64,000 bases of DNA from Peptococcaceae bacterium UBA5757 (GTDB lineage Bacteria > Bacillota > Dehalobacteriia > UBA4068). Each line of letters opens with the position of its first letter. Within the stretch, counting starts at the first letter, position 1. The stretch is taken from positions 142,070 through 206,069 of the forward strand of contig DIFD01000022.1 in assembly GCA_002418965.1 (NCBI GenBank). The letters run 5' to 3'. Below are positions 9,967-63,010 of the stretch, piece by piece. A model generated the notes under the pieces. That model was not told the DNA's origin. It saw only the letters and a list, made by a program, of their open reading frames with translations, and did no database searches. Position numbers and translations under genes: made by a program.

Positions 9967-10213
9967 TCATCCCTTCAATATGAAGCTCATCGCTTTGTAA
10001 TTGGGTTAAGACCAAATGTTTTCCCTCAATTTGTACATCGCCATGGTTATTGCGGAAGACAATTTTATCTTCCGCATAACTACAAATTCCTTTATGGTTT
10101 TCGATCACAAGATTCCCGTTGCCCACAAGCGTCAAACGCATCACATCCAAGATAATTTCTTCAGGCATTTCCAATACCGAAGTCATGGTTTTTTTAAATT
10201 TTTTGACACCCAT
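9932..10213 (-). CDS. yqfC: sporulation protein YqfC
   Basis: ~93 aa YqfC-like (MGVKKFKK...LEMPEEIILDVMRLTLVG...). ATG at 10213 preceded by GGGAGGAGGTG. The ORF-track 'M' at 10222 is a GTG inside the SD. Confidence 0.75.
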   Translation of the reverse strand: MGVKKFKKTMTSVLEMPEEIILDVMRLTLVGNGNLVIENHKGICSYAEDKIVFRNNHGDVQIEGKHLVLTQLQSDELHIEGMIEKILLPQQER

Positions 10214-10233
10214 GCACAACACCTCCTCCCTAA

Positions 10234-10503
10234 GGTGACGAGAGTTGAATTAACCCGCCTCTGCCTGGCTAAATTTATGGTTTGCTTTGTTATCCTTTCT
10301 AGGCATACATCAAGTATGCCGTCGTGCTAAAGCTGTACAAAACGCAAATTTTTCTGACGCCGACGGTCGAAGAGTTTTTTGTCTCCAGCCGTACATCCAG
10401 CAAGGCGGATGACGCCGCTTTACTGAATGTAAAGCAAGGGGAATAACACCGCATAGAGTGCGGATGGAGACAAAAAACCGGATTGGATTCGGCTCCCGTC
10501 ACC
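10234..10503 (-). ncRNA. unclassified 270-nt structured RNA element / interspersed repeat, copy 1 (homologous to 55753-56022)
   Basis: ~75-80% identical to the second copy over the full length. Closing helix ggtgacg/cgtcacc plus internal hairpins (ggcatac-atcaa-gtatgcc; gcgg-atgacg-ccgc; gctttac-tgaat-gtaaagc; ccgca-tagag-tgcgg) with compensatory differences between copies. 3' end (minus sense) sits 3 nt from the yqfC SD. Strand is inferred from gene context only. Confidence 0.45.
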
Positions 10504-10529
10504 TTAAACTTATGACTAAATCTGCCAAA

Positions 10530-10565
10530 ATATGAAAGCAGCCCGAAACTTCTTTCGGGCTGCTT
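10530..10565 (-). terminator. rho-independent terminator after the yqfB-position gene
   Basis: Hairpin agcagcccgaaa-cttc-tttcgggctgct followed by a U-run on the minus strand. Confidence 0.6.
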
Positions 10566-10598: not shown

Positions 10599-11279
10599 TT
10601 ATTTCTCGTTCATAACTCTATTCATAATTTTTGCCTTGGGAGGTCCTAATATTTCCGACAAAATAATCCCATTAAGCAAATTATTTTTTTCAACCAGGTT
10701 TACAAGCTCCCAAGGATTTGTAACCTGGTCTCTTGTTGTTAAAGCCGGAGTTTGTCTTCCCACGACTGTACCTGTTTTCTGATAAGGCGAGGATTCACTT
10801 CCGAAATCGCCTTCTAAAGATGATTCACCCTCCCCATAAGGAGTGCCTTCATAAGAGGATTGCCCCTGCCCAAAAGAACCGCCTTCAGTAGATATTATCG
10901 GCTTGACCTGCTGAGACAATTTCATTGTACGAGGCTTAACTTTTGTGGGTTCCACATAACGACGTACAACATCTTCCCATGAAGTGAGCGCAGACTGATC
11001 TTGCGGAGGCTCATCGTCTAGTTCTTCAATAGCAGCGCCTTCAAAGTACGTGCCCTCAGATTGAGGGTATTCGTCATCTTCTTCCCAGCTTGAATCCCAT
11101 CTTTGAGATCCAACTGTTTGCCTGCTTTGCCTTTGGCGCATTTGGGCTTCATATGCTTCTTTGAGCCTTTTTTGCTGCTCAACTTTATTCGTTTGGCCTG
11201 TACGAGTCTTATTTTTGGTCGCATTTGTGATTACTCTTACGACCACCAGCAAAATGATAAAATAGATCAGACCGCTCAT
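10599..11279 (-). CDS. hypothetical membrane-anchored protein with a long acidic/Gln/Ser/Gly-rich low-complexity region (occupies the B. subtilis yqfB position)
   Basis: 226-aa ORF. N-terminal TM helix (LIYFIILLVVVRVI), then a disordered Q/E/S/G-rich sequence. No recognisable catalytic motif. Confidence 0.55.
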   Translation of the reverse strand: MSGLIYFIILLVVVRVITNATKNKTRTGQTNKVEQQKRLKEAYEAQMRQRQSRQTVGSQRWDSSWEEDDEYPQSEGTYFEGAAIEELDDEPPQDQSALTSWEDVVRRYVEPTKVKPRTMKLSQQVKPIISTEGGSFGQGQSSYEGTPYGEGESSLEGDFGSESSPYQKTGTVVGRQTPALTTRDQVTNPWELVNLVEKNNLLNGIILSEILGPPKAKIMNRVMNEK

Positions 11280-13828: not shown

Positions 13829-13856
13829 TTGCAATGTGTTATGTGGATATTATACT
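13829..13856 (+). promoter_or_regulatory. candidate sigma-A-like promoter (TTGCAA-16-TATACT) for a small plus-strand transcript
   Basis: TTGCAA at 13829-13834, TATACT at 13851-13856. Confidence 0.3.
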
Positions 13857-13862
13857 ACAATT

Positions 13863-14015
13863 CGGCGGCAAAACCTGCGATTTCACCAAACGCCAGGCGT
13901 TTGGGTTGCGCTTTAAGCGCAACCGCCGTTGCGGCGTAATGAACACAATCACGCCTTTGGCGTGACACCGCCATTCGCGGCGCTCAAGAGCGGAGCTCTT
14001 GAGTTCTTGTGTTTA
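13863..14015 (+). ncRNA. candidate ~150-nt sRNA made of consecutive GC-rich hairpins ending in an intrinsic terminator
   Basis: Hairpins ccaaacg-ccagg-cgtttgg, gttgcgc-tttaa-gcgcaac, cgccg-ttg-cggcg, tcacgcc-tttg-ggcgtga, ccgc-cattc-gcgg, then ctcaagag-cggag-ctcttgag followed by ttcttgtgtttatt. No ORF. Confidence 0.3.
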
Positions 14016-45411: not shown

Positions 45412-45645
45412 TTAATTGGGTTTGATCTCCTCGAACCTGTTTTGGACATCATTAAGCCAAACACGACAATTTTGGATCAAATGAACACCTTCGGCATATT
45501 TTTCCAATAAGTCTTCCAAGACCACGTCGGAAGCTTCCATCTCTTTGATCAGGTCTTCTAAGCGGTTTAGAGACTCCTCGAACCCGGGCTTTTGCTTGGA
45601 AGACTTATTGGGATTACCCTTTTTAATTCCCGTATCCTCTTTCAA
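45412..45645 (-). CDS. xseB: exodeoxyribonuclease VII small subunit
   Basis: 77 aa. FEESLNRLEDLIKEME... XseB helix hairpin. No adjacent xseA. Confidence 0.85.
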   Translation of the reverse strand: MKEDTGIKKGNPNKSSKQKPGFEESLNRLEDLIKEMEASDVVLEDLLEKYAEGVHLIQNCRVWLNDVQNRFEEIKPN

Positions 45646-46863: not shown

Positions 46864-47132
46864 TCAAGTACACCCCTAATTTTATTTATGAGAATTTTTT
46901 CTTAATAATTTTACCTGTCTAACGTCGTCCGGGTTAAAGTCAAATATCCCACGTCACGTCATATACACCGCAAGCTAGTGTAAACAGCTTTGCGGATTTG
47001 TTCTGTGGCTATTATATCATCGATATGCCCCAAATCCAAACAAATTTGCTGGCGCTTCGATAGAAATTGATTTATACTATTATTTATTACCCAAGTTACA
47101 TCAAAAAATAACAAAGAACAAGGACTAAAAAA

Positions 47133-54948: not shown

Positions 54949-55728
54949 TCATACGCAATTTTTGATGCGGTAAACTCGAATAGCATTTTCCGTTGTCATC
55001 TTTGTGATTTGCTCTATATCTATGCCGCAAATCTCAGAAAGTTTCCTGGCAACCAAAGACACTCTGGCCGGTTCATTGTTTTTGCCGCGATATGGATGCG
55101 GTGAAAGATAGGGGCAATCCGTCTCGATTAAAAGATGTGCCAACGGTACTTTTTTTGCGACTTCCACCAAAGATCTGGCATTGGTATAGGTAATTGGTCC
55201 GGCAAACGAAATCTCAAACCCTAAACGCATACAGACTTCCGCCATTTCCCAACTACCGGAAAAACAGTGTATAATTCCTCCATTAACGCCGCCACGCTCC
55301 TGTTTTAAGATGCGCATGACATCGCCGTGAGCATCTCGATCATGGATAACGATCGGAAGCGACAATTCCCGCGCCAACTTAATTTGTTCGACAAAAGCAC
55401 GGATTTGGTCTTCTTTTGGCGACAAATTTCGGTAATAGTCCAAGCCGATTTCGCCGATTGCCACAACGTCGGCCGATCTTGCCAGCTCATAGATTTTTTG
55501 CGACATCTTTTCGTCCCAGATCTTGGCGTCATGGGGATGGATGCCGATTACGGCGTGGACCATATCGGGATATTTTTCCGCCAGGCGAACATTCATCAAA
55601 GAGGACGGCCAATCGTAACCGATGGAAGCAATGTGACCGACTCCGGCCTCCTTGGCCCTGGTTAAAACGTCCTCCAAGTCTTTATACAGTTCCGGGTCAT
55701 TCAAATGGGCATGCGAATCAAAAAGCAA
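54949..55728 (-). CDS. tatD: TatD family metal-dependent DNase (YabD)
   Basis: Start taken at TTG giving MLFDSHAHL... (matches YabD N-terminus), preceded by GAGGTG. The ORF-track start at 55770 lies inside the upstream structured element. Confidence 0.88.
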   Translation of the reverse strand: MLFDSHAHLNDPELYKDLEDVLTRAKEAGVGHIASIGYDWPSSLMNVRLAEKYPDMVHAVIGIHPHDAKIWDEKMSQKIYELARSADVVAIGEIGLDYYRNLSPKEDQIRAFVEQIKLARELSLPIVIHDRDAHGDVMRILKQERGGVNGGIIHCFSGSWEMAEVCMRLGFEISFAGPITYTNARSLVEVAKKVPLAHLLIETDCPYLSPHPYRGKNNEPARVSLVARKLSEICGIDIEQITKMTTENAIRVYRIKNCV

Positions 55729-55752
55729 TTCCGACACCTCTTTTTTTTGCTT

Positions 55753-56022
55753 AAGGCGAGGTAAGTGCAACTAATCTGCCTCGGCCTTGTTAGTCTGTGT
55801 TTTGCTTTGTTTTCGTCCTAGGCATACATAAATATGCCTTTCGTCCTCAACCTTGTAAACCGTAAATTTTCACGACGCCGACGGTCGGAGAGTTTTTAGC
55901 TCCTAGCCGTGCGTCAGGCAAGGCAGACGAAGCTGCTTTACCTATGGTAAGCAAGGAGGATAATGCCGCATTGCGTGCGGTTGGCATCTAAAAACCGGGT
56001 TGGGTTTGACTCCCCTTGCCTT
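55753..56022 (-). ncRNA. unclassified 270-nt structured RNA element / interspersed repeat, copy 2 (homologous to 10234-10503)
   Basis: Starts 5 nt after the metG stop and ends 12 nt before the tatD SD. Same hairpin order as copy 1, with compensatory substitutions: closing helix ggcgagg/ccttgcc with one G·U on the plus reading; gcag-acgaag-ctgc; gctttacc-tat-ggtaagc; ccgca-ttgcg-tgcgg. Confidence 0.45.
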
Positions 56023-56027
56023 AAAAT

Positions 56028-57977
56028 CTATTGTACTTTGGTTCCGGCAGGCATGGACGCAACTTCCAAGACTTCCAGGCGGTCTTTGCCCACGGCGGAA
56101 AGCAGCATGCCGTGTGATTCGATACCGCGGATGGTTCTGGGTTTAAGATTAGCGATCAAAATCAGATTCTTGCCCACCAAGTCTTCCGGCTCGTATTGCT
56201 CAGCGATCCCTGCCAAAACAGTTCTTTGCTCATCCCCTACCTGCAACAAAAACTGCAGCAGTTTATCGGCTTTGGGTACTTTTTTGCATTCCAGCACTTT
56301 GACCACACGTAAATCCAGTTTGGCAAAGTCCTCGATCGTAATCTCCTCACCAATGGGTGCAAATTCTTCTTTTATTACTTCTGTTTCTTCTTGAGACTGC
56401 GGTTCTTCTTCCACTACAATAGCCGCTTGTTCGTCGGCTTGCCAATCTATCCGGGGAAACAAAGGCTCCCCGCGGTCTATTTTAACGCCGACCGGGAACC
56501 GGCCCCAACTAAGACTATCCCAGGTCTGGACATCGGTATTGGCAACGATCCCTAATTGCTGCCAGACTCTCTGAGGCAAAGTGGGCATCACGGGCGTAAT
56601 CATAACCGTCACCAAACGGATGACCTCAGCCATATTGTACAAAACAGTTGCCAACTTCTCTTTTTCTTGCGCTTTATTGAGCGCCCAGGGGGCGGCATCA
56701 TCGATATATTTGTTGGCCTTATTCACGAGCTTCCAGACTTCCGCCAGCGCGCCCGCCCATTCCATATGATCCATTAGCTCTTCCACTTTTGCAGGCGTCA
56801 CTTTTGCCAGCTCGATCAAAGACGCGTCAAATTCAGTTCCCGGCCCCGCTGCCAGTACTTCACCGTTTTGAAATTTATTGAACATAGCGGTGGTTCGAGA
56901 AAGCAGATTGCCGTAATCGTTGGCCAGATCCACATTGATACGGCTGACTAAAGCCTCTTCCGAATAAGTGGCGTCGAGGCCATAGCCCATCTCTCTAATC
57001 AAAAAGTAACGGATGGCATCCACGCTGTATTTTTGTACCAAAATAACCGGATCGACCACATTGCCTTTGGATTTACTCATTTTGCCTTCGCCTAAAAGCA
57101 ACCAGCCGTGCGCCATCACTTTTTGGGGTAAAGGAATATCGGCGGCCATGAGGATAATGGGCCAGATGATGGTATGGAAACGGACAATATCTTTGGCCAT
57201 CAAGTGCACATCGGCGGGCCAGAATTTTTGATAAAGAGATTCGTCATCCGTATACAGTCCTAACGCAGAGACATAATTCAGCAAGGCGTCAAACCAAACG
57301 TAGATCACGTGCTTTTCATCAAACGGTACTTTAATGCCCCAATCGAAGGTAGTGCGGGATACGCACAGGTCTTCCAGCCCCTGTTTGACAAAATTAACCA
57401 TCTCGCTGCGGCGATTGGGCGGCTGGATAAAATCGGGGTTTTCTTCAATAAATTGCAGCCAACGATTGGTATATTTACTCATCTTAAAGAAATAGCTTTC
57501 TTCTTTGGTCAGCTCAGCCGGACGACCGCAGTCCGGACAGCAATGGGTTTCTCCCAATTGGCGTTCCGTAAAAAAGGTTTCGCAGGGCGTACAGTACCAA
57601 CCTTCATATTCGGCCTTGTAGATGTCGCCCTGGTCATAAATCTTTTGGAATATCTTTTGGGCAAATACTTTGTGGCGGGGTTCGGACGTACGCAAGAAAT
57701 CATCATATTCGATCTGCATGGTCTGCCACAAATCCTTGATCCCGGCCACGATCTCATCGACGAATAACTGGGGCTCTTTACCTGCCTCTTGAGCACGGCG
57801 CTGAATCTTTTGACCGTGTTCGTCTGTACCTGTTAAAAAATACGTTTCAAAACCCCGCATCTTTTTATAGCGCGTCATGGTATCGGCCGCCACCGTCGTA
57901 TAGGCATGGCCGATATGCAAATTACCGCTGGGATAATAGATGGGAGTGGTAATATAAAATGTAGGTTTTTGGTTCAT
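56028..57977 (-). CDS. metG: methionyl-tRNA synthetase with C-terminal EMAP/tRNA-binding domain
   Basis: Start MNQKPTFYITTPIYYPSGNLHIGHAY (HIGH motif) preceded by GGAGGT, KMSKS motif, C-terminal Trbp111-like domain. The ORF-track N-terminal extension to 58061 overlaps rsmI. Confidence 0.95.
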   Translation of the reverse strand: MNQKPTFYITTPIYYPSGNLHIGHAYTTVAADTMTRYKKMRGFETYFLTGTDEHGQKIQRRAQEAGKEPQLFVDEIVAGIKDLWQTMQIEYDDFLRTSEPRHKVFAQKIFQKIYDQGDIYKAEYEGWYCTPCETFFTERQLGETHCCPDCGRPAELTKEESYFFKMSKYTNRWLQFIEENPDFIQPPNRRSEMVNFVKQGLEDLCVSRTTFDWGIKVPFDEKHVIYVWFDALLNYVSALGLYTDDESLYQKFWPADVHLMAKDIVRFHTIIWPIILMAADIPLPQKVMAHGWLLLGEGKMSKSKGNVVDPVILVQKYSVDAIRYFLIREMGYGLDATYSEEALVSRINVDLANDYGNLLSRTTAMFNKFQNGEVLAAGPGTEFDASLIELAKVTPAKVEELMDHMEWAGALAEVWKLVNKANKYIDDAAPWALNKAQEKEKLATVLYNMAEVIRLVTVMITPVMPTLPQRVWQQLGIVANTDVQTWDSLSWGRFPVGVKIDRGEPLFPRIDWQADEQAAIVVEEEPQSQEETEVIKEEFAPIGEEITIEDFAKLDLRVVKVLECKKVPKADKLLQFLLQVGDEQRTVLAGIAEQYEPEDLVGKNLILIANLKPRTIRGIESHGMLLSAVGKDRLEVLEVASMPAGTKVQ

Positions 57978-59661: not shown

Positions 59662-59674
59662 AGTTTTCCCTCCC

Positions 59675-59716
59675 CGTTTCCGTTTCCGTTTCCGTTTCCG
59701 TTTCCGTTTCCGTTTT
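59675..59716. repeat. hexanucleotide microsatellite (CGTTTC)6 plus one degenerate unit [(GGAAAC)n on the coding strand] in the yabA-yabB intercistronic region
   Basis: cgtttc x6 perfect (59675-59710) followed by cgtttt. On the minus strand it reads (GGAAAC)7-GGGGAGGGAAAACUUUGG-AUG(yabB). Confidence 0.9.
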
Positions 59717-62695: not shown

Positions 62696-63010
62696 TCTTT
62701 TTTCTTTTTTTTATCATTCCTGTAATTTCTATTGCAGCATAGCTAGAAACCAAATTGTCTACAGTCACTATCGCGTTAGGCTGGGCTTTACTGCTACTCA
62801 TAAAAGATACGGGTTATTTACAATTTTAGGAGTATGGTATGTGGATATTATACCACGGATCGATGGCAAACCCCCAGGTATTGCAAAGATAAAGCGTTTC
62901 AAATTACCGTGTAATACACACAATACACTAAAGACGTGACATCACAACATGTAGCACTTAAAAACCTTGCTCTTGAATATCTGTCCTTATTATATCAAAA
63001 ATGAGGACAA

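Follow-up and report, generated by a model that had tools for sequence, protein, structure and literature searches.

The DNA of Peptococcaceae bacterium UBA5757 analysed here carries, between a YqfB-like gene and yqfC, a non-coding segment of 270 nucleotides (nt) with many predicted hairpins; yqfC, which belongs to the YabP family, precedes yqfD and phoH. The window, the whole stretch of 64,000 nt (64 kb) of contig DIFD01000022.1 in which it lies, contains a second segment of the same kind between metG and tatD. An earlier interpretation made from the letters alone, the sequence-only reading, had offered three identities for the segment: a novel cis-acting leader of the yqfC-yqfD-phoH operon, a processed small RNA (sRNA), or a member of an interspersed repeat family similar to BOX, ERIC and Correia elements. 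The source organism is an uncultured, spore-forming Firmicute from oil sands, represented in metagenomes of a methanogenic short-chain-alkane-degrading (SCADC) enrichment. The best relatives returned by a MetG homologue search are only 72-75% identical, which makes the host phylogenetically isolated in the databases. A search for YqfC homologues found no match except the query YqfC itself. The minus strand carries all the genes at the element loci in the window; by GC skew it is the G-rich strand over the whole window as well, and presumably the leading strand throughout.

The presence of two homologous non-coding segments was borne out by both blastn and nhmmer. Copy 1 (at yqfC) and copy 2 (at tatD) are 74.5% identical over 278 nt (blastn, E 1e-40), so that the identity of 75-80% estimated by eye holds at its low end, and they are recovered by nhmmer with a two-sequence hidden Markov model (HMM) at E 1e-94 and 1e-91. 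The claim that both are exactly 270 nt long was not upheld, the cores being 270 and 266 nt. The similarity breaks off sharply at TAAGG...CCTTAA, and the DNA outside these borders is unrelated. A search of the 64-kb window with the same HMM found no further copies. A third, shorter copy was found in the source DNA past the window end (locus L213; nhmmer, E 7e-37), where a YfbR-like HD gene and a HAD hydrolase gene flank it. In the plus-strand sense, its first ~120 nt and its last ~40 nt correspond to those of the long form, whereas ~125 nt of the interior, including the block GACGCCGACGGTCG and a long internal helix, are gone. Because copy 3 lacks this part and yet keeps both ends, much of the interior of the element is dispensable. 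All three copies have the same orientation, and copy 1 is identical in three further assemblies of the source organism. These three copies are the sample of the family on which the analysis is based. They come from ~81 kb of source DNA (the window and its flanks), which was compared with seven loci (~100 kb) from six relatives, including metG-tatD spacers.

The copies are bordered by short repeats that have the appearance of a duplicated target. Copies 2 and 3 are flanked by TTAA on both sides, and copy 1 by TTAA and TTAG. Copy 2 starts 3 nt past the metG stop codon TAG (56028-56030), and the left TTAA of copy 3 includes the TAA stop codon of the upstream YfbR-like gene. Empty sites were found in one of the relatives (locus L209). 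Its metG-tatD spacer reads ...TTTTTAGCAAAAAACAGAGGTG..., where the source DNA has ...TTTTAA, the 266-nt element and then TTAAGCAAAAAAAAGAGGTG... Similarly, the yfbR-HAD junction of the relative is GGATTAAAATACC, and that of the source organism is GGATTAA followed by the 145-nt element and TTAAATATAGG. Subtraction of the element together with one TTAA makes two independent spacers of the source organism collinear with the relative and restores an ancestral-looking site in each. The flanks and the empty sites together thus point to target-site duplication.

The element is absent from all seven loci of the six relatives, including the metG-tatD and yfbR-HAD spacers, so that three dispersed copies in ~81 kb of source DNA stand against none in ~100 kb of related DNA. 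No match was found in plasmids or phages by blastn, and three scans of viral contigs gave 0 matches. A scan of genome contigs with the pattern GACGCCGACGGTCGNAGAG gave 84 matches, all of them chance matches in high-GC genomes, with 0 homologous by nhmmer. A metagenome scan with TTTGCTTTGTTN{4,10}TAGGCATAC gave at least 120 chance matches, mostly in human-gut contigs, and none was homologous among those listed. The source DNA contains only one other inverted repeat bounded by TAAG...CTTA, at 45508-45607. These 100 nt within the repeats TAAGTCTTCCAAG...CTTGGAAGACTTA lie inside a 77-aa minus-strand open reading frame (ORF) and were judged a coincidence in a coding region, not a family member.

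Some of the sequences met in these comparisons are observations in their own right. In three relatives with a MetG identity of 72-73%, the metG-tatD spacers are 310-500 nt long (L208 5937-6436, L210 3440-3751 and L215 6905-7214). They have a conserved AT-rich sequence of their own, ...TTGTCATAATAACTATTTTT...TTGCAGGGAAATAAA...AATTAGGGAGATAA..., which is unrelated to the element and could represent a leader or promoter region of another kind. The 20-base pattern TTTGCTTTGTT-N8-TAGGCATAC occurs in well over 100 metagenome contigs, mostly human-gut, that are otherwise dissimilar to the element; presumably it is part of a conserved gene segment of a common gut species.

The ends of the element are terminal inverted repeats (TIRs) in all three copies. 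The two arms pair across 13-16 bp to form a closing helix, P1, and a weaker inverted similarity extends to ~30 nt. In an alignment of the three copies from which one bulged G of copy 3 was taken out by hand, 93.8% of the P1 cells are paired, and both sides have changed in 7 of 16 pairs. These values were reached by 0 of 500 shuffles, and controls with a slid partner gave 0-1 double-changed pairs. Over the outer 12 nt, the two arms within one copy match at 10, 9 and 7 positions, compared with 5-8 matches for the same arm between copies. It is the pairing of the ends, rather than their sequence, that is conserved. Since the ends differ between the copies and yet remain complementary, the P1 pairing itself is likely to matter.

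The fold as a whole was examined in both long copies. On both strands, copies 1 and 2 fold far more stably than dinucleotide shuffles (z -4 to -7; z = -6.9 for copy 1). When the minimum free energy (MFE) structure of copy 1 is projected onto copy 2 in the gene-sense strand, 71 of 92 pairs are kept, against a null expectation of 60.4 ± 3.1 (p = 0.0008), and there are 8 double changes versus 2.75 expected. On the opposite strand the figure is 69 of 87 pairs (p = 0.03). Projections in the reverse direction, which start from the copy 2 MFE structure, are not significant. Support for base-pair-preserving change is moderate across the whole fold, and weaker and strand-ambiguous for the internal helices. 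All the hairpins that had been named in the sequence-only reading are present (GGCATAC/GTATGCC, CCGCA/TGCGG, GCGG/CCGC versus GCAG/CTGC, and GCTTTAC/GTAAAGC versus GCTTACC/GGTAAGC), as are the conserved blocks GACGCCGACGGTCG and TTTGCTTTGTT. Its further claim of base-pair-preserving helices holds well for the terminal helix and moderately for the whole fold. Some helices have clearly not been maintained: the 15-bp internal helix of copy 1 has decayed in part in copy 2 and is lost from copy 3. Block GACGCCGACGGTCG is dispensable for the family, because the short copy 3 exists without it. Block TTTGCTTTGTT is kept for a reason other than the predicted helix, since its pairing partner mutates and is not conserved.

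The element is non-coding. None of its six frames is both intact and conserved, and the copies differ by 1-nt insertions and deletions. With flanks the copies are small (278, 274 and 153 nt, below ~400 bp), and they contain neither a transposase gene nor a conserved frame. Protein searches with the six-frame translations found nothing. Public gene calls place a spurious 46-aa ORF inside copy 2 (55847-55987, minus strand), and a profile of this ORF finds only itself among 1.84 billion proteins. The public start of tatD (TTG 55768-55770, minus strand) also falls inside copy 2, upstream of a TTG at 55726-55728 that is preceded by a Shine-Dalgarno (SD) sequence. Likewise, the public start of the HAD gene (GTG, L213 6020-6022) is within copy 3, and a better, SD-preceded TTG is found at L213 6065. 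A coding small protein or type I toxin-antitoxin system was rejected for want of a conserved ORF or promoter, and a tRNA-derived element was also rejected; ARAGORN found no tRNA or tmRNA. The view that the segment belongs to no known RNA family stood up to an Rfam covariance-model search, which gave no credible match. Rfam 15 had 0 matches at the gathering threshold in the whole window, and a permissive E-value mode applied to all three copies returned only implausible sub-threshold matches (mir-4716, STnc410 and MESTIT1).

The flanking tetranucleotides of all copies end 0-9 nt before the SD sequence of the next gene (Table 1). As had been proposed, copy 1 abuts the SD of yqfC, GGAGGAGG, which is next to the flank TTAG/CTAA. 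The ribosome-binding site (RBS) of the HAD gene, AGGGGTG, is 4 nt past copy 3. An intrinsic terminator upstream of copy 1 was also confirmed, at a spacing of 28 nt. Between the two, TCATATT-14 nt-CATAAGTT (10507..10535, minus strand) overlaps the terminator tail and abuts copy 1, and it resembles the B. subtilis sigma-E promoter consensus. A promoter for this mother-cell sporulation factor would suit yqfC-yqfD as sporulation genes. If this candidate promoter is real, copy 1 would make up essentially the whole 5' leader of yqfC. With the element in transcribed spacer RNA beside RBSs, a side effect on the expression of the neighbouring genes is possible.

Table 1. Coordinates of the element copies, their parts and the adjacent signals. 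Positions refer to the window unless a locus is named.
Feature	Position	Strand	Description
Copy 1	10230..10507	-	270-nt core 10234-10503; TTAA 10504-10507, TTAG 10230-10233 (minus-strand reading); 278 nt with flanks
P1 5' arm/TIR, copy 1	10491..10507	- (gene-sense)	TTAAGGTGACGGGAGCC
P1 3' arm/TIR, copy 1	10230..10246	-	AACTCTCGTCACCTTAG; yqfC SD directly after
Copy 2	55751..56024	-	266-nt core 55755-56020; TTAA both sides; 274 nt with flanks
P1 5' arm/TIR, copy 2	56008..56024	-	TTAAGGCAAGGGGAGTC
P1 3' arm/TIR, copy 2	55751..55767	-	CACTTACCTCGCCTTAA
Copy 3	L213 5895-6047 (~window 65960-66112, ~2 kb past window end)	same orientation	145-nt core; 153 nt with flanks
Block TTTGCTTTGTT (plus strand)	10282..10292	-	unchanged in copies 1, 2 and 3
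Hairpin GGCATAC-loop-GTATGCC	10303..10321	-	stem equal in copies 1 and 2; slightly degraded in copy 3
Block GACGCCGACGGTCG	10357..10370	-	identical in copies 1 and 2; missing from copy 3
Internal long-hairpin domain	10373..10479	-	15-bp perfect helix TTTTTTGTCTCCA/TGGAGACAAAAAA around three small hairpins
yqfC RBS and start	10211..10229	-	RBS GGAGGAGG 10222-10229, ATG 10211-10213; directly 3' of copy 1 (0 nt); 93-aa gene call
tatD RBS and likely true start	55726..55741	-	RBS AGAGGTG 55735-55741, TTG 55726-55728 (MLFDSHAHL); 9 nt past copy 2
Intrinsic terminator of upstream YqfB-like gene	10536..10565	-	outside element; stem 28 nt from copy 1

Other repeats were seen elsewhere in the window. 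Two long spacers, one upstream of nfeD and one upstream of tmk, have a motif of ~39 nt in common (13837-13875 and 62835-62873, 79% identical; weaker at 46990-47037). Its gene-strand sequence, ...GTAGTATAATATCCACATA..., includes a TATAAT box, and the motif probably marks related promoter or operator regions. The YqfB-like ORF contains a 36-nt tandem repeat at 10808-10887 (2.2 copies, 75% match), and there is a perfect microsatellite, CCGTTT x7, at 59674-59715.

These features were compared with those of known repeat families. Published features of bacterial miniature inverted-repeat transposable elements (MITEs) are TIRs, flanking direct repeats and a stable RNA fold, and bcr1 is reported to be transcribed and to keep a cruciform-like RNA fold through compensatory base changes (PMC3184786). 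The bcr1 and related group-A repeats of the Bacillus cereus group (~155 bp) are, like the element, intergenic and non-coding in a Firmicute, with short direct-repeat flanks and a non-conserved distribution, and the dispersed copies, flanking duplications and covarying closing helix of the element follow the same plan. In contrast to the element, with its 4-bp TTAA, bcr1 has a 5-bp duplication. It belongs to a different host lineage and has no sequence similarity to the element, which is larger (266-270 nt) and has a 145-nt deletion form in addition. Correia/NEMIS repeats of Neisseria and ERIC/IRU repeats of enterobacteria are likewise small TIR-bounded repeats in transcribed intergenic DNA near genes (PMC3184786). 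Families of this kind have well-conserved terminal repeats and a single long hairpin, in contrast to the poorly conserved, covarying ends and multi-branched interior of the element, and Correia duplicates TA where the element has a TTAA-type duplication. In mRNA, Correia/NEMIS and ERIC/IRU form long hairpins that can alter transcript processing by RNase III or transcript stability.

A resemblance was also found to the IS5 group of insertion sequences (ISs). Read directly from E. coli K-12, IS5D is flanked by TTAG on both sides and runs from GGAAGGTGCG to CGCACCTTCC (GGAAGG...CCTTCC), and IS5F is flanked by CTAA and runs GG...CC. The element has the same kind of 4-bp YTAR duplication (TTAG and CTAA at IS5; TTAA and TTAG at the element) and GG-initiated termini. 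The end of copy 1, TTAAGGTGACG, has AAGGTG in common with the IS5 end GGAAGGTGCG, and copies 2 and 3 share just AAGG. Unlike IS5, the element lacks a transposase gene and is 5-8 times shorter, and the ~81 kb of source DNA revealed no member of the IS5 family. The similarity to IS5 gives a lead and does not demonstrate a partnership.

Other known kinds of structured sequence were set aside. Palindrome-associated transposable elements (PATEs) have no TIR and no target duplication, and carry separate subterminal hairpins at each end beside a fixed tetra- or pentanucleotide target; an IS200/IS605-derived PATE is ruled out by the true TIRs and the duplicated TTAA. Integron attC sites have R''/R' cores RYYYAAC...GTTRRRY, a length of 57-141 nt and a place at the 3' end of gene cassettes. 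The element ends in TTAAGG...CCTTAA without a consistent GTT core, is 153-278 nt long, and is flanked by housekeeping operons rather than cassettes. Riboswitches and leaders in Rfam (T-box, SAM, ydaO) are similar to the element in their position upstream of an SD, which for copy 1 is probably inside a 5' untranslated region, and in their stable multi-hairpin fold. In contrast to these, the element shows neither association with a coherent gene class nor orthologous conservation, and it bears the hallmarks of insertion.

The segment thus probably belongs to a family of small, non-autonomous insertion elements specific to this lineage. Such a MITE-like structured repeat would be transcribed together with its host operons. 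This assignment follows from its lack of coding capacity, the TIRs and duplicated target, the dispersed copies with an internal-deletion form, the empty sites in a relative and the restriction to one lineage. Taken together, these features agree with how bacterial MITEs are defined in the literature, with a particular resemblance to bcr1. Of the identities that had been offered, the interspersed repeat family is the one that fits. Several observations weigh against this assignment. Copy 1 is flanked by TTAA and TTAG, and the duplication may be one of 2 bp (TA) or 3 bp (TTA). The TIR sequence common to the copies is TTAAGG only, and positions 7-15 differ yet stay complementary, which is atypical for a TIR bound by a transposase; no conserved TIR sequence matching that of a cognate IS or transposase was found, and no transposase gene with matching ends was seen in the ~81 kb of source DNA. 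It is because the TIRs covary without sequence conservation and no transposase was seen that we call the element MITE-like and not a typical MITE. At an identity of ~75% between copies, any mobility would be old, and with only three copies the copy number, the orientation bias (3/3; chance 0.25) and the insertion preference are poorly sampled. The predicted unpaired probability from the SD to the start codon, with versus without the element, is 0.40 versus 0.35, 0.26 versus 0.32 and 0.23 versus 0.44, and so has no consistent direction. Finally, the asymmetry of G-U versus A-C favours the gene-sense strand in P1 and the opposite strand in the TTTGCTTTGT helix. The folding energies disagree in the same way, being -48.1 kcal/mol in the gene-sense strand versus -34.6 kcal/mol in the other for copy 3 and -91.2 versus -98.9 kcal/mol for copy 2, with copy 1 neutral, so that RNA-level selection on one strand is not demonstrated. 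The earlier argument that RNA structure is under selection therefore stands for the conserved end pairing and does not extend to a particular RNA strand.

The covarying ends could also belong to a mobile element that is handled as a folded single strand of DNA or RNA, with a structure-specific enzyme reading the paired ends, as for integron attC or IS200/IS605. Such a mechanism would explain why the termini covary freely, with 7 of 16 P1 pairs doubly changed and only TTAAGG conserved; a single orientation in DNA where the minus strand leads throughout by GC skew suits a strand-specific process, and arms 145-270 nt apart would be unable to pair in duplex DNA without strand separation. We nevertheless consider it unlikely, because a clean 4-bp duplication together with true TIRs is the signature of DDE cut-and-paste transposition and IS200/IS605 have neither, no attC cores (GTTRRRY/RYYYAAC) occur in the element, recombinase, TnpA(Y1) and integrase genes were not seen nearby, and the orientation is known for three copies only. 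A dedicated cis-regulatory leader, riboswitch-like or protein-binding, in which the closing helix gates the adjacent SD, is very unlikely. Its appeal lies in the position of every copy just ahead of an SD, the stable fold of copy 1, some base-pair-preserving change, and the possibility that copy 1 is the whole 5' leader after a candidate sigma-E-like promoter. The downstream genes are unrelated, however: yqfC is a sporulation gene, tatD encodes a TatD nuclease, and the third gene encodes a HAD hydrolase. In relatives the same spacers lack the element and have intact empty sites, and copy 3 manages without an internal domain of 125 nt that holds the best-conserved block. In addition, copy 2 has a degraded internal long helix, no consistent sequestration of the SD is predicted, no terminator is present inside the element, and Rfam holds no relative. 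The suggestion of a novel leader specific to yqfC-yqfD-phoH is thus not sustained, given the same element before tatD and the HAD gene and its absence from the seven loci of the six relatives.

A multi-copy family of independently transcribed sRNAs would also be structured, non-coding, repeated and without an Rfam match. This explanation is highly improbable, since no conserved sigma-70-type promoter or intrinsic terminator belonging to the element was found on either strand (the few promoter-like matches are in copy 2 only), the copies are wedged within operons a few nt from a stop codon and an SD, and the flanking duplications would be left unexplained; the processed stand-alone sRNA of the sequence-only reading has no support either, for want of such a promoter or terminator. 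The fallback had been a spacer duplicated by chance or as a segment, neither part of a family nor mobile. In its favour, the window holds two copies only, and public plasmid, phage and viral sets contain no match. It is effectively refuted by a third copy, found at another locus between flanks that differ from those of the first two, by precise borders made of inverted repeats with TTAA on either side, by the lack of homology in the flanking DNA, and by the empty sites in a relative.

For the MITE-like element, we propose that it is, or formerly was, moved in trans by an IS5-type DDE transposase making 4-bp YTAR duplications. Its landing sites would be TTAA tetranucleotides in the short, AT-rich stretches that separate a stop codon or promoter from the RBS that follows. 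As all copies are in transcribed spacers and in one orientation, the element would become part of the mRNA, where it is predicted to form a closed multi-hairpin body whose ends pair through P1. The need for pairing could arise in the mRNA, if a self-contained fold prevents the insert from trapping the adjacent RBS, or in transposition, if matched ends are required for mobilisation; these are the two most likely explanations for the covarying TIRs. If mRNA stability, processing or translation of yqfC, tatD or the HAD gene is affected, insertion would have brought this about incidentally, as described for ERIC, Correia and bcr1, and no dedicated circuit would be involved. That the element is a mobile RNA-structure module recognised by its shape, with ends free to mutate as long as they pair, we regard as rather doubtful. 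If it were so, one of two things would follow. Mobilisation could act on single strands in a structure-specific way, a mechanism that has yet to be described in elements that duplicate TTAA, or the host could select for a stem that is self-insulating or processable and thereby tolerates insertions directly against RBSs. In the latter case the element would be a domesticated portable device of 5' untranslated regions and intercistronic RNA in anaerobic Firmicutes.

The element represents a new family of a well-known kind, and its unusual feature is that the two ends change in step and stay complementary. It adds a MITE-like family to the poorly studied, uncultured Peptococcaceae-like Firmicutes of alkane cultures, and it shows cleanly how an insertion can fall precisely into the gap between an RBS and the stop codon or promoter ahead of it. 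The element accounts for long "orphan" spacers in the source genome, and its masking is advisable before riboswitch or sRNA searches in this lineage. The covarying termini are the sole feature that could lead somewhere new, and with many copies it could become possible to separate selection for pairing in the mRNA from a need for matched ends in mobilisation.

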